DNA of 42,238 bases from a virus (taxonomy: Duplodnaviria; Caudoviricetes): positions 1 to 42,238 of the IMG/VR virus record IMGVR_UViG_3300032302_000137. The stretch is one strand, 5' to 3'. Within the stretch, counting starts at the first letter, position 1; the number at the start of each line of letters is the position of its first letter. The position numbers and the translations under genes are program-made. The notes beneath the pieces were generated by a model. The model was not told the DNA's origin and made no database searches. It was given only the letters and a program-made list of their open reading frames with translations. This document shows positions 22,605 to 41,646 of the stretch, piece by piece.

Positions 22605-24164
22605 ATGACTGAAAAGATTTATGCGCCGGGAGTCCTTCCCCGCATTGACGACCGCGGAGATGGATCGTTCTCGCAGATCATCAAGAATGAGAGCAGGTTC
22701 AACGATGCCTTGGGGCGGCTCAAAACTAGCCGTCACCAGAACATTTATGAAGCGGATTTTGAATATGGCACGCAGCCGTTGCGCTGGGAGAGCCTGACAG
22801 CCGGTGGTGGCACCGTTGCACACCAACCTGGCCTGGGCGGTGTGCGCATGAGAATCGGTACGGCTTCGGGCGATCTCACCATCCGGCAGTCCCGCCCTTA
22901 CCACCGTTACCAACCCGGCAAGACCATGATGATGGCGACCGCCGTGAACTTCGGCACCGCGCAGACCAATCAGCTGCAACGGGTCGGATTCTTCGATGAC
23001 TCCAATGGAATCTTCATAGAGCAGGGAAACCCTTCGGCTGACAACACCTACGGCATGGCTTTAGTTGTTCGTTCCGACACTTCGGGAACCGTCACCGACA
23101 CCAAGTTCCAAGCCGGAACATCGGGTGGCGGGACTGAATGGAACGGCGATGCCGTCGTCCGTGCATCTCTTGACTGGACACGAATCCAGATGGTGTGGAT
23201 GGAGTACGCCTGGTACGGCGCGGGTGCAGTCCGATACGGTGTGTTCGTCAACGGTGAGCCGATTGTGTTGCACACTGTCGGGTTCGGTAACCGCTCCGGA
23301 CAGCTTGCACCGTGGGCAAAAACCGGCAACCTTCCTGTCCGCTACGAGCAGAGGAACATCGGCACCGTAGCAGCCCAAAATGACATGTATCACTATGGCG
23401 TGTCCGTGATAGTTGAGGGTGGAATTGATGAGGCGCGTGGCTTTACCTACAGCTACGGCAATCCTCAGTCAGCACCCTTAAAGTCGGTTGCCGCTTCAGC
23501 TTCTCGCGCCCCAGTGATTTCGGTTCGCGGAAAGCCTTTGGGTGTTGTTGAATACACTCAGGCTACCGCCGCCGCGACCGCAGGTAGCACTACCAGCCTG
23601 ACCGCTGGCACAGCGGCGTGGACGGTGGATCAGTGGAAGGGCCGGTTCGTCAACTACACCGTGTCCAGTGTGCAGTACACCGCACGCATCACATCGAACA
23701 CCGCGACCGTCCTGACCCTGGCTGACATTGTGACAGGTGGTGCGCTTGCAACTGCTCCGGTAGCGGGGCAGAACTACAGCATCGGCATCATCAACCGGGG
23801 TCAGCTTCTCCCGCGTCGTTTGCAGGTCACGTCAACTCAGCCGGTGTTCATCGAAATTTTCGTGTCCACCCCGACCTCCGCAATCAACCTGACCGGTTCC
23901 AACTTCGTTGCTAACGCTGCGGCACCTAACTCGTTCGCACAGATTGATTCGTCTGCTACAGCGTTCACCCTGTCGGGTGAGGTTGTGTATTCGATCTTCG
24001 TTCCCGCGAACACGGCTGTCGATCAGCAGATTGACCAGCTGTTCCCGCTAGTCAACTCGATCCGTGGCGCAAGCCCAGACACCTTGACTGTGGTCGCCAC
24101 CAACACTACGGCTTCTGCTGCGAATGTGTCCGTTCAGATCATCGGCCAGGAGGCAATGTCGTAA
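22605..24164 (+). CDS. virion structural-like protein (beta-rich, 519 aa)
   Basis: DALGRLKTS, YQPGK, RVGFFDDSNGIF, WYGAGAVRYG, NLPVRYE motifs; Thr/Ala-rich. Confidence 0.65.
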   Translation: MTEKIYAPGVLPRIDDRGDGSFSQIIKNESRFNDALGRLKTSRHQNIYEADFEYGTQPLRWESLTAGGGTVAHQPGLGGVRMRIGTASGDLTIRQSRPYHRYQPGKTMMMATAVNFGTAQTNQLQRVGFFDDSNGIFIEQGNPSADNTYGMALVVRSDTSGTVTDTKFQAGTSGGGTEWNGDAVVRASLDWTRIQMVWMEYAWYGAGAVRYGVFVNGEPIVLHTVGFGNRSGQLAPWAKTGNLPVRYEQRNIGTVAAQNDMYHYGVSVIVEGGIDEARGFTYSYGNPQSAPLKSVAASASRAPVISVRGKPLGVVEYTQATAAATAGSTTSLTAGTAAWTVDQWKGRFVNYTVSSVQYTARITSNTATVLTLADIVTGGALATAPVAGQNYSIGIINRGQLLPRRLQVTSTQPVFIEIFVSTPTSAINLTGSNFVANAAAPNSFAQIDSSATAFTLSGEVVYSIFVPANTAVDQQIDQLFPLVNSIRGASPDTLTVVATNTTASAANVSVQIIGQEAMS

Positions 24165-24277
24165 TGGCTACACCAAAGCCCAAGCCCAAGCCGAAGGCCA
24201 AGCCCATGCCCAAGGATGCTATGGATGGCGGCATCGAGACTAAGCCTGGAAGCAAAGGTTCCCGCAAAAAGAAGTAA
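24164..24277 (+). CDS. small Lys/Pro-rich basic peptide (37 aa)
   Basis: MATPKPKPKPKAKPMPKDAMDGGIETKPGSKGSRKKK. TAATG coupling, AGGAGG upstream. Confidence 0.6.
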   Translation: MATPKPKPKPKAKPMPKDAMDGGIETKPGSKGSRKKK

Positions 24278-24278
24278 C

Positions 24279-24307
24279 TTGACCTATCGGTAATAGTTAT
24301 GTATTGT
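24279..24307 (+). promoter_or_regulatory. SigA-like promoter
   Basis: TTGACC-17 nt-TATTGT. Confidence 0.65.
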
Positions 24308-24315
24308 TTCCGATA

Positions 24316-24581
24316 GGGAAGGGTCGCCTACTGACACTGACCGTGAGGCGCAGTACCCCCCACTTGCTGCCTCCGAAAGGTTGACCCTTCCCCCTTAATC
24401 TGCGCCCCGGTAACGGGTTCCGATGGTAAATGCACTGCCCCCACGAGGGGTTTCGGATGAGTTACCTCACCCTGGGTGGCTGGTAGTAGTGAGCGCGAGC
24501 GGACCGAACCCAGCCAAGCCGCGGCCCCACGGTGGAGACAACAACCCCATGCACTATTACAGTGTGTGGGGTTGTTGCTTT
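24316..24581 (+). ncRNA. candidate structured non-coding RNA
   Basis: 10-bp closing stem GGGAAGGGTC/GACCCTTCCC, several hairpins with GAAA/GTAA/GCGA loops, and a long terminal hairpin. Confidence 0.6.
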
Positions 24582-24607
24582 ATGCCTAATAGTGGTACAT
24601 TACTTTC

Positions 24608-24835
24608 ATGGAGTACATGGACGGCTTCGCAGAGATGGGGGCTATCTCCCTCAACATCGTTGATTCCGACCGGGTGATTGTCGGTGTTCTTGCCGACGCA
24701 CCGGATCGTGTGGCCCTTGCTCTGGGCAATGATGCCGCCGATAGCTATTACCTGTTGCAGTTGACTCCTGAGAGGGCGCGTCAGTTGGCGGCTTCTCTTC
24801 TCAACAAGTCCGATTCAGTGGAAGGGATTAAGTGA
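24608..24835 (+). CDS. hypothetical protein
   Basis: ORF after TGGTACATT (probably leaderless). Confidence 0.6.
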   Translation: MEYMDGFAEMGAISLNIVDSDRVIVGVLADAPDRVALALGNDAADSYYLLQLTPERARQLAASLLNKSDSVEGIK

Positions 24836-26878: not shown

Positions 26879-27784
26879 TCAGAATCCCAGGTCTAAACCC
26901 TTGGCTTCGTCCAGGGCACGTTCCGCGGCACTGGCCCCGGTGTACCGGTCGATCATGGCCCTGGAACTCCATCCGGCGATAGCCATTAAACCGCCCTCAG
27001 AGCCGCCGTGAAGCAGCCAGCGGGTCGCCGCGGTGTGGCGGGTGCGGTGCGGGTGGAATCCCTTCACACCGGCAGTCTCAGCGCGAGCTTTCAGGGTGGA
27101 TACCAGGGTGTGATATTGCATGGGGGTGCCCCAGGCGGTGATCCAGAACTTGTCGTTACCGGGCTTGGCGGATTTGCGCCGTGCCCGAAGGTAGCGGTCC
27201 AGCGAGGATGCGGTGGCAGCGGAGAACGGCACCACCCGGCCCTTGCCGCCCTTGCCCTTGACAATGACGGCTTTCATGGCCGACAGGTCAAGGTCATCTA
27301 TCCGCATTCCCACCAATTCCGCACTGCGCGTGGCGGTTTCAAACATGAACCGCAGGATCGCCTCGTCTCGCAGGTCGATGAATTTGGAGGACTTGCTGAC
27401 ACCGGCACGCTTGCAGGCTTTCAGCATGGCGGTGACCTGATCGTCGGACAGCGACGGCACCACCTTGTCGTTCTTGCGCGGTGGCCCCATCCCCAGGAAC
27501 GGGTCCGCGTCGGTTTCGCCCTCCTCGCGCAGCCACTTCACGAACGACTTCAGCGCATAGTGGCGCAGCCGTGCGGTGTTGGGTTCGGTGCCTGCGGCTA
27601 GGGTGGCGGCATGAAACTTCTGGATGCTCAGTTTCAGCAGGGGATCCCCGATCCCGTTGGCCTCGCACCATTCCAGGTAGCAGACCGCCGACCGGGTGTA
27701 GCTGTTGAGCGTTTGGGGCGACTTATTCAGCGCAGCCAGGGAAATCCGCCACGATTCGACCAGTTCCAGCAACTCTTCGACCAT
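26879..27784 (-). CDS. int: tyrosine recombinase/integrase (Xer-like, no arm-binding domain)
   Basis: SAM-like N-terminus. Catalytic R (TATRSAE), K (KGKGGK), HxxR (HRTR), W (AGWSS), Y (DRYT). Confidence 0.93.
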   Translation of the reverse strand: MVEELLELVESWRISLAALNKSPQTLNSYTRSAVCYLEWCEANGIGDPLLKLSIQKFHAATLAAGTEPNTARLRHYALKSFVKWLREEGETDADPFLGMGPPRKNDKVVPSLSDDQVTAMLKACKRAGVSKSSKFIDLRDEAILRFMFETATRSAELVGMRIDDLDLSAMKAVIVKGKGGKGRVVPFSAATASSLDRYLRARRKSAKPGNDKFWITAWGTPMQYHTLVSTLKARAETAGVKGFHPHRTRHTAATRWLLHGGSEGGLMAIAGWSSRAMIDRYTGASAAERALDEAKGLDLGF

Positions 27785-30359: not shown

Positions 30360-30974
30360 CTATATCCTTTCGATCTGATGGAACCCAAGTTCCACCGGAG
30401 TATCCCGACCGAAGATTGAAACCAGAACATGAAGCTTCCTGCGTTCAACATCGACCTCACTAACAGAGGCGTGATACCCGGTGAACGGACCATCCATAAC
30501 GGTAACCGCATCCCCGATGGAGAAGTCGCAAACAATCACATTTGCTGCGGTGGGATCCGCACCAACCTGACCCTTGACCTCTTTTACCGGAGGGGGGAGC
30601 AGGAACTTGATAACGTCGCCCAGGGCGAGGGGTGTCGGAACCGTAGTGGCCCCGACGAACCCGCTCACCCCAGGCGTATTTTTGACCACGGTCCACGCCT
30701 CGTCAGTCAACTCCATGCGGATCAACATGTAACCCGGCATGATGGTCTTTTTTGACTGTTTGCGCTGACCGTTCTTGAACTCGACAACGTGATAGGTGGG
30801 AACTTCCACCTGAAATATCACGTCCTCTAGCGCAAAGTTTGCGACTCGCTGTAACAGATTGGTCCGGGCCATGTTTTCGGCACCGACCTTGGCGCGAGCC
30901 ACATACCAATCCCCAGGAAGGGACCGGAGTTCTGCTGCGAGGATTTCCGCGGGATCAGTTGTTTCGGTACTCAT
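30360..30974 (-). CDS. nusG: NusG-like transcription elongation/antitermination factor
   Basis: NGN domain ([34 protein letters not shown]) and KOW domain ([35 protein letters not shown]). Confidence 0.95.
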
Positions 30975-36883: not shown

Positions 36884-36920
36884 ACCTCCTCCTTTCCTCG
36901 TATATTTTTTTCCCCCTTCG

Positions 36921-36999
36921 TGGAGCCGTGGGGAATCGAACCCCAGTCCAAACCATTCCGACTTGCGGGTTTAAGGTTTGTCGATACCATTCCGGCCCC
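36921..36999 (-). ncRNA. minimal tmRNA-like RNA (tRNA-like domain only)
   Basis: GGGGCCG-GAATGGTATCGAC-AAACC...GGTTTG-GAC-TGGGG-TTCGATT-CCCCA-CGGCTCC-A. G3.U70 acceptor stem, stemless D loop, no tag ORF. Confidence 0.8.
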
Positions 37000-37453: not shown

Positions 37454-37550
37454 TTCCTCTCTTTCTCTTGTTTTAGTGCTGGCGCACTAGGACCGCCACG
37501 AGGGGAAACAGGAGGAGGAAAACCCCCATGGCGGTCCTGCTGCGCCAGAC

Positions 37551-37730
37551 CTACAGAGCTTTGGCGAATTCCTTATCTGCGGCATAAACCACTTCGATGA
37601 AACCTTGAGACGAGAGTGACTCTAGGTATTCATTTTTGTGGTGACCGCAGAACGCCAATTCCATGTTGGATTCTGACTTGGTAAACCGGGACTGTGCCCT
37701 AGCACCGCACCGGTCACAAAGAATGACCAT
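37551..37730 (-). CDS. small zinc-finger protein
   Basis: CDRCGARA...LAFCGHH. Confidence 0.65.
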   Translation of the reverse strand: MVILCDRCGARAQSRFTKSESNMELAFCGHHKNEYLESLSSQGFIEVVYAADKEFAKAL

Positions 37731-37877: not shown

Positions 37878-38222
37878 TTAGTCGTCGTCGCCGCAGCAAT
37901 CCGACTCGTCGCAAGATCGACACTGTTGGCATTCGTCGCACCAATCGCTGTCACCCTGACCGCAGTAATGACACCAGTAGCAGCATGTAAGGCCACAGTG
38001 GGTACAGTTCTCACAGTCAGCGCACCAATCACTGTCACCGCGACCGCAAGAGCGGCAAAAGTTTTCACAATCGCAGCCCTCACAGTATTTACAGATCGTG
38101 CAGTCAGCGCACCAATCACTGTCACCTTCACCGCACTTGCGGCAATATGGCCTGGTGGCGATGCCAAGTTCTGACTCAAACCAGTCAGCCATTTCCTCCT
38201 CCAATTTCTCCTGTTTGGTCAT
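37878..38222 (-). CDS. Cys-rich repeat (metallothionein-like) protein
   Basis: Three CxxCGxGDSDWCxxCxxC repeats. Confidence 0.65.
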   Translation of the reverse strand: MTKQEKLEEEMADWFESELGIATRPYCRKCGEGDSDWCADCTICKYCEGCDCENFCRSCGRGDSDWCADCENCTHCGLTCCYWCHYCGQGDSDWCDECQQCRSCDESDCCGDDD

Positions 38223-40526: not shown

Positions 40527-40603
40527 ATTCCTGTTTTCTCCTGTATTTCATCTCGTACCTGCCCGTTGTGGACAGGTGTCTCACTAGATGAGGGGAGACG
40601 TTT

Positions 40604-40845: not shown

Positions 40846-40937
40846 ATGTCTCTCCCTCCTCAATCCCCGCATCTAGTGAGGCATCAGCCCACAGGAGGAA
40901 CCGGGTTGGAGTACAGGCGCGACGGGACGCGTCGGTA

Positions 40938-41306: not shown

Positions 41307-41646
41307 TAAACCTCCCGGTTTATCGAAGTGCGGAATGATTGAATGCCCCGTCGCACCTGTGCCCCAACCCGGTTCGGATCCACGGAGGGGTCAGGTTTGG
41401 CAGATCCTGTGCAAGCGATAGCCGCTACCCGACCCCTCCGCTTCACCTACGAGAGAAAGTGGAGAGGAATCTTGACCACTGGAAAGCACTGACGTTTCCT
41501 CGTTACCAGTGCAGTGATCGGTCTACCCATTGAGGCATGGATAGCACAAGCAGCAAAAACAACTTGCTGCTCACCCTCTTGCGGGGGCATTGAGCCTTTC
41601 GGCTTTGTGCCCTGTAGGGGTATGAAGCCCTACAGGGCTAGGGAGA

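Follow-up and report, generated by a model that had tools for sequence, protein, structure and literature searches.

The window analysed here is the whole 42,238-nucleotide stretch, a 42-kb piece of a tailed phage that is 57% complete. It carries minor tail genes, lysins, Erf, an exonuclease, a Clp protease, a primase/helicase, two WhiB genes and an HNH gene, and the leftward genes after the integrase include a NusG paralogue and an AAA ATPase. The best cultured matches of the exonuclease are Vilmaviridae mycobacteriophages, at ~35% identity, and a 70-kb relative (G001) has an Lsr2 gene upstream of its terminase (L147 771-1100, minus strand); both point to a host that is probably mycobacterial or related. 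Between a 37-codon ORF and a gene encoding a 75-amino-acid (75-aa) protein lies an element predicted, from its own letters and those of its relatives, to be a separate non-protein-coding gene for a folded RNA of ~265 bases that matches no catalogued family (Table 1). The cassette follows the exonuclease and HNH genes, and it is at this place that phage Bongo has an array of tRNA and tmRNA genes. Two full homologues were found, at the loci L084 and L128, and close copies are present in contigs of five public DNA runs from two studies (X2-X6).

Table 1. Coordinates of the features of the window.
Feature	Position	Strand	Detail
37-codon ORF	24164-24277		
P1, SigA/sigma-70-like promoter	24279-24307	+	-35 TTGACC 24279-24284, 17 nt, -10 TATTGT 24302-24307
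TAATAGT box in P1 spacer	24291-24297	+	same place in L084 and L128
RNA element (predicted, ~265 nt)	24316-24577	+	
Domain 1	24316-24392	+	10-pair closing helix GGGAAGGGTC 24316-24325 / GACCCTTCCC 24383-24392; internal loop; arm 24345-24373
Six-C loop	24356-24361	+	predicted unpaired
Domain 2, conserved core	24400-24524	+	closed by CTGCG 24400-24404 / CGCGG 24520-24524
Predicted pseudoknot	24405-24466	+	CCC 24405-24407 / GGG 24415-24417; GGTAAC 24409-24414 / GTTACC 24461-24466
Three-way junction	24419-24457	+	TCCGA/TCGGA helix; strand AAATGCACTG 24428-24437; small CCC/GGG hairpin
TGGCTGG/CCAGCCA arm	24477-24516	+	AGTA/GAA motif, presumably E-loop-like; GCGA loop
Terminal hairpin	24539-24577	+	39 nt, 17 pairs, -27.0 kcal/mol, z -6.3
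P2, second promoter-like site	24587-24601	+	TAATAGT 24587-24593, TG-G-TACATT, -10 at 24596-24601
75-aa gene	24608-24835	+	3' of the RNA in all three loci
Integrase gene	26879-27784		
NusG paralogue gene	30360-30974	minus	Pfam E 6.6e-22; kept in G001
tmRNA reduced to tRNA-like domain (L086)	36918-36999	minus	tmRNA model, 61.7 bits
TAATAGT copies	10325, 11162, 13439, 16382, 19785, 20627, 22420, 24291, 24553, 24587, 31727	both	

Scanning with the polymerase-exonuclease encoded nearby led to L084, whose copy shows 86% identity across 334 nt and starts at window position 24278, behind different upstream genes. L128 was reached by aligning the 75-aa protein (22 sequences), which is 49% identical there; a divergent copy of the RNA lies upstream of the 75-aa gene (L128 4741-4972), and a covariance model built from the window and L084 only finds this copy as the sole match in 84 kb, with a score of 51 bits and E 9e-10. 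The core is 81% identical over 67 nt in L128, whereas the gene that follows gives no blastn match. In three of the run contigs the copy also starts at 24278, where homology with L084, X2, X3 and X4 begins. The break at this position is sharp and falls one base 5' of the -35 box, and the block upstream of it is swapped among relatives, being a 519-aa virion-type gene in the window, other tail-like genes in L084 (11815-16534) and neither in L128. The 37-codon ORF, directly 5' of the promoter, is lysine- and proline-rich and takes an altered form in X3 and X5.

The family as found here is small, and no homologue beyond L084, L128 and the run contigs was recovered from the viral, metagenome, genome, phage and plasmid collections. 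Blastn of the element against cultured phages and against plasmids gave no match, the 75-aa protein alignment yielded no locus among 210 metagenome candidates, and covariance model R1, run on 49 of the 77 loci initially selected, matched two of these records, both of them the known homologues. An exact 20-mer in viral contigs (L081) proved to be a chance match within a gene, the 40 loci with a degenerate E-loop pattern are all one unrelated coding stretch, and none of the 13 metagenome and 5 genome loci with the core pattern extends past the pattern as a homologue; a match of model R2 to phage Bongo (9 records; 22 bits, E 0.011) is weak and lies antisense inside gene 82. Among the sequencing runs, none recorded as RNA contained the element. 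Further lineages of the RNA are hinted at, indirectly, by proteins P0003 and P0011, whose N-terminal extensions run across its 3' end.

The promoter described in the original prediction, TTGACC-17-TATTGT, is present as written, with a predicted transcription start near 24314-24316. The match alone is within chance, since a 6-kb scan returned three such sites against 2.7 expected. Its -10 hexamer reads TACTCT in L084 and TATCAT in X3, X5 and X6, keeping the pattern TANNNT, and L128 has TTGCGT-17-TACACT in the same place (by eye). The window contains the TAATAGT heptamer of its spacer 11 times, where 1.35 copies are expected and none of 100 shuffles reaches that count; the box mostly reads GTAATAGTT, several copies are kept in L084 and L128, and it is likely to be a repressor operator. 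Three boxes fall at the RNA locus, namely in the P1 spacer, inverted within the last hairpin (24553-24559) and 5' of P2, and L128 has the P1-spacer and pre-P2 arrangements. The 39-nt hairpin of the original prediction is likewise found and is likely to be a terminator. It carries a compensating change in L084 and X2-X6, A>C at 24544 being matched by T>G at 24572, and its energy is -27 to -30 kcal/mol in the window and L084.

A second promoter-like site, P2, ends 6 nt 5' of the next ATG and is 93% identical in L084, and its counterpart in L128 (TG-G-TATTGT) lies 7 nt 5' of the ATG; it was found by eye and is absent from the promoter scan's list. P2 would likely give a leaderless mRNA, and the locus may hold two co-repressed promoters, an arrangement that would make the RNA a unit of its own. 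To this extent the description of the element as stand-alone holds, more weakly in L128, where the terminal hairpin reaches only -9.6 kcal/mol and has no U run. The 75-aa protein has 21 homologues at 51-96% and matches no Pfam or PHROG family; its predicted structure (pLDDT 66) has three strands and one helix. A COMM domain was considered for it and rejected, the best Z of 5.2 (rmsd 2.8, 58 aligned) being not above common arrangements, and matches to the Atlas stayed below 0.9.

The 77-nt domain predicted from the window alone, closed by a ten-pair helix, is present (z -3.8), with 29 of 30 cells of that helix paired and one pair changed on both sides. Its proposed cloverleaf did not survive: the arm CGCCT/AGGCG, as we read the claim, is broken in L084, and a long hairpin with the C6 loop fits both the window and L084. 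In L128, the helix of this domain is extended, there are two arms and the six-C run sits on a different one. The probability of the loop being unpaired is 1.0 in the window and L084 and 0.91-0.96 in L128; as the loop survives a change of arm, its exposure rather than its place would seem to matter.

The core, Domain 2, contains 33 pairs in seven helices, with 93 of 94 cells paired across the three sequences. Nine of these pairs change on both sides, a count that none of 500 shuffles reaches and for which six slid controls give 0, and which comes from three related full sequences with few independent events, aligned so as to fit the nested pairs of the model. An unfitted fold of the window and L084 gives the same main helices, with six both-sided changes among 81 pairs. 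The one-sided changes are swaps of G-U with G-C or of U-G with U-A, a pattern consistent with an RNA of the + strand. All 11 listed variant positions of X2-X6 inside the RNA are unpaired or keep their pair, including a change of GCGA to GUGA present in three run contigs (a small number of differences are missing from the variant tables, namely 2 of 41 for the X2 contig and 2 of 8 for one X3 contig).

Within the core, the sequence CCCG-GTAA-CGGG had been read as a GNRA hairpin. That hairpin is replaced here by a predicted pseudoknot: its loop becomes GTGC in L084 and GTGT in L128, none of its four pairs covaries and one is broken, whereas the same letters pair with GTTACC, two of the six pairs changing on both sides and two on one side (GGTGCC/GGCACT in L084). 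The resulting architecture is a three-pair stem, a one-base loop (24408, C or A) and a six-pair stem. The three-pair stem is suggested by its fit, because CCC/GGG never varies, and would form simultaneously with the six-pair stem. The TCCGA/TCGGA helix of the original prediction is present in the three-way junction and, like the small CCC/GGG hairpin beside it, shows one both-sided change; the junction strand AAAUGCACUG is invariant in all three sequences. The TGGCTGG/CCAGCCA arm with its GCGA loop was also correctly foreseen, and three of its seven pairs change on both sides. Its AGTA/GAA motif, which we take to be E-loop-like, has GAC for GAA in L084, and the tip of the arm is replaced in L128. 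The claim of three GNRA loops stands in part: GAAA (as GCAA) and GCGA remain of that type in L084 and are absent in L128, and GUAA is not kept.

The whole element folds with a z of -3.05 on the + strand and -2.56 on the - strand; the signal stems from Domain 1 and the terminal hairpin, the middle part scoring +1.0. As the middle is no better than shuffles, and as a z of -3 or below is also seen in 5 of 30 control windows taken from the contig (15 shuffles each), energy is no proof of an RNA. It is on account of the both-sided changes among homologues, and not of energy, that we regard the element, by comparison of sequences, as real: a structured RNA gene, absent from the family catalogues, in a mycobacteriophage-like lineage that is uncultured. 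Helices preserved by compensating changes are found in three lineages and the promoter is kept with different letters; the original prediction of an unannotated phage RNA of no recognised family is supported, also by the Rfam scan that it proposed, with corrections to its detailed fold.

In that scan (Rfam 15), no family reached the gathering cut-off, and the best hits were generic hairpins far below theirs. Searched individually, the models of the raiA motif (RF03072), GOLLD (RF02032) and Ms1 (RF02566) matched none of three records. The same was true of ROOL (RF03087), which gave no hit in the Rfam scans either and for which controls also gave nothing. The 6C model (RF01066; E up to 10) had no match at the locus in any of the three records; no control genome reached its cut-off, so that this search may be insensitive. 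The Cobalamin riboswitch model (RF00174) had no match at the locus, with 7 of 14 controls passing the cut-off. The element had been held not to be a tRNA, and ARAGORN indeed finds no tRNA genes in the window; the tmRNA model matches not at the RNA locus but solely at 36918-36999. Resemblances to hammerhead, twister, HDV-like, pistol, group I, group II, T-box and c-di-GMP RNAs were considered and are without Rfam support. Literature searches found no published description of an RNA with this fold. Supplement files of Fremin et al. 2023 (PMC10690425) may bear on this: files 3, 5 and 6 contain neither contig name nor the junction motif and file 4 contains neither contig name, and other files of that supplement may hold an entry.

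The same phage carries other likely modulators of host expression, namely a tmRNA with the tRNA-like domain only, the NusG paralogue and the two WhiB genes. The tmRNA has only 16 nt where a tag region is expected and ends in CCACGA; its 82 nt are identical in G001 and its flanks differ (by eye). A similar form is known from phage DS6A. According to one published account, such a molecule inhibits tmRNA, perhaps via SmpB titration (PMC4131195), and another ascribes this to the DS6A form (PMC11915505). No specific pairing of the RNA element with the tag-less tmRNA was found when looked for. The 41 tblastn matches of the NusG paralogue in the phage collection include no named mycobacteriophage.

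The reading that we favor, tentatively and by analogy, is that of a trans-acting phage RNA that works in the manner of 6C/B11 through its C loop, carried on a protein-binding or stabilizing core. On this view, the RNA would be transcribed from a promoter of its own under operator control, the unpaired six-C loop would, as in 6C/B11, base-pair with host mRNAs at their G-rich ribosome-binding sites, and the pseudoknotted core would bind a protein or shield the RNA from decay. As described for 6C/B11 (RF01066; PMC6486639), C-rich loops bind G-rich mRNA sites without a chaperone, and the element shares with that RNA an unpaired six-C run in a stem-loop, an actinobacterial setting and its own promoter. 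This reading is supported by the covariation in three lineages, by the C6 run staying unpaired in all three despite its change of arm, by the core outlasting the next gene in L128 and by the presence of the other likely modulators, although the tag-less tmRNA, the NusG paralogue and the Bongo-like location are context rather than proof. It is weakened in several respects. There is one C loop here and two in 6C, and the 6C model finds no match; other differences from 6C are a length of ~265 nt against a model of 75 positions, an added pseudoknot domain and a phage as carrier. Complement scans for the C loop and the junction in phage DNA revealed no conserved target (a G-run precedes 20 of 142 phage genes, a count biased by the choice of starts). 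The RNA precedes the same gene in all cases, as a leader would, and the L128 hairpin is weak.

A further weakness is that most invariant bases lie in Domain 2 and not in the C loop, which could itself form 6-7 pairs, in all three sequences and without covariation, with the G-rich strand on the 3' side of the last hairpin. It is these two points that raise the main rival, which we consider rather unlikely: a decoy or scaffold that acts through structure alone, as raiA, GOLLD, ROOL or Ms1 would, on a host protein or complex and with no mRNA pairing. The RNA would then be one compact body, its C loop docked on the 3' G-rich strand and GCAGU on ACUGC. An invariant single-stranded junction beside a pseudoknot would suit such a body, and both cross-domain pairings are possible in all three sequences, but the GCAGU-ACUGC pairing, too, shows no covariation, the models of raiA, GOLLD and Ms1 do not match, and the C loop shifts place in L128, a move that a fixed tertiary contact would resist.

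The known members of this group illustrate how far the likeness extends. With the raiA motif, or ModT (RF03072), the element shares size, a trans-acting reading and, as an echo of modules only, a six-pair pseudoknot on a short-stem loop and an optional E-loop arm. As set out in the raiA accounts (PMC12968392, PMC10861870), raiA also has a 5'-3' closing P1 with GU and GGU bulges, a second pseudoknot (PK2) and an UUAGACGUAA linker, all missing here; the RNA has instead two separately closed domains where raiA has a long P1 joining both ends, its pseudoknot partner lies outside the inner helix, and its locus is not beside raiA/comFC. GOLLD (RF02032) and ROOL (RF03087), which the literature describes as phage orphans near tRNA islands (PMC12286853, PMC9569102), are likewise phage-borne orphan structured RNAs, and the element lies 3' of an HNH gene, where a related phage group has tRNA arrays. 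However, it is far shorter than these RNAs and the window has no tRNA genes. Ms1 (RF02566) is of the same size range and likely host group, but differs in fold.

An unlikely alternative to action in trans is a cis-acting leader, which would set read-through into the block of small genes either as an attenuator of the riboswitch type or, together with the phage NusG, as a put/EAR-like antiterminator. RNAs of the put/EAR type are antiterminators, and the order of promoter, aptamer-like core with an invariant junction and hairpin 14 nt later resembles such a leader, as do the same gene following in all three loci and in X2, X3 and X5, the NusG gene itself and the weak hairpin in L128. Nevertheless, the next gene need not depend on the RNA as its leader, because the window, L084 and L128 each have a promoter-like site just 5' of its ATG. 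Furthermore, inspection of the three sequences shows no conserved antiterminator pairing with the 5' arm of the hairpin, the block downstream spans only ~2.2 kb, and no riboswitch family matches. Very unlikely is a new class of ribozyme that cleaves itself or acts on tRNA-like substrates; a compact pseudoknot with invariant unpaired bases would befit one, but no known family matches and neither a cleavage site nor a substrate is apparent.

Least credible of all is the absence of any functional RNA, the stretch being either the gene of an overlapping 84-aa protein or a region of control at the DNA level whose hairpins arose by chance: a z of -3 is common in the contig, three operator-like boxes lie in or beside the element and L128 keeps the ATG with a 41-aa frame, but that frame is alike in its first codons only, the start ATG at 24423 is ATA in L084 and the alignment has three gap columns, the codon positions take 8/13/10 substitutions as compared with 14/5/38 in the neighboring 75-aa gene, a protein word search found no protein sharing words with the ORF, and both the nine double-sided pair changes and the strand-specific G-U swaps speak for an RNA. 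The ORF is thus not conserved as a protein, as judged from the aligned loci, and is disfavored as the product.

To our knowledge, only a small number of non-coding RNAs of phages have been assigned a function. The favored reading, that of a 6C/B11-like RNA acting in trans, makes separate predictions for the two parts of the molecule, namely that the C loop silences G-rich ribosome-binding sites and that the invariant core binds a partner, and the RNA with its promoter is small enough to be cloned whole and tried in Mycobacterium smegmatis. A positive outcome would add both a phage-borne functional relative of the 6C/B11 regulators and an RNA tertiary fold new to science; its rarity is the limitation, the three full sequences all coming from uncultured phages. 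It is tempting to speculate further, on a conjecture that is more probably wrong than right by a wide measure, that the element represents a new class of phage RNA in which an undescribed core of pseudoknot and junction binds a host machine (ribosome, RNA polymerase or ribonuclease) or is catalytic, and a movable anti-Shine-Dalgarno C loop aims it at mRNAs. If this were true, the RNA, the tag-less tmRNA and the NusG paralogue would together equip the phage with RNA-based means of taking control of gene expression in mycobacteria.

Elsewhere in the window, two long inverted repeats (40567-40596 with 40864-40893, 30 nt, 83%; 40898-40926 with 41347-41375, 29 nt, 90%) occupy a region with few clear genes, and a further 31-nt inverted pair lies at 37474-37553; these are possible further structured RNA or DNA elements. 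A 65-nt repeat is present three times at 37910-38145, with a spacing of 84-87 nt, within a minus-strand ORF that is apparently cysteine-rich.
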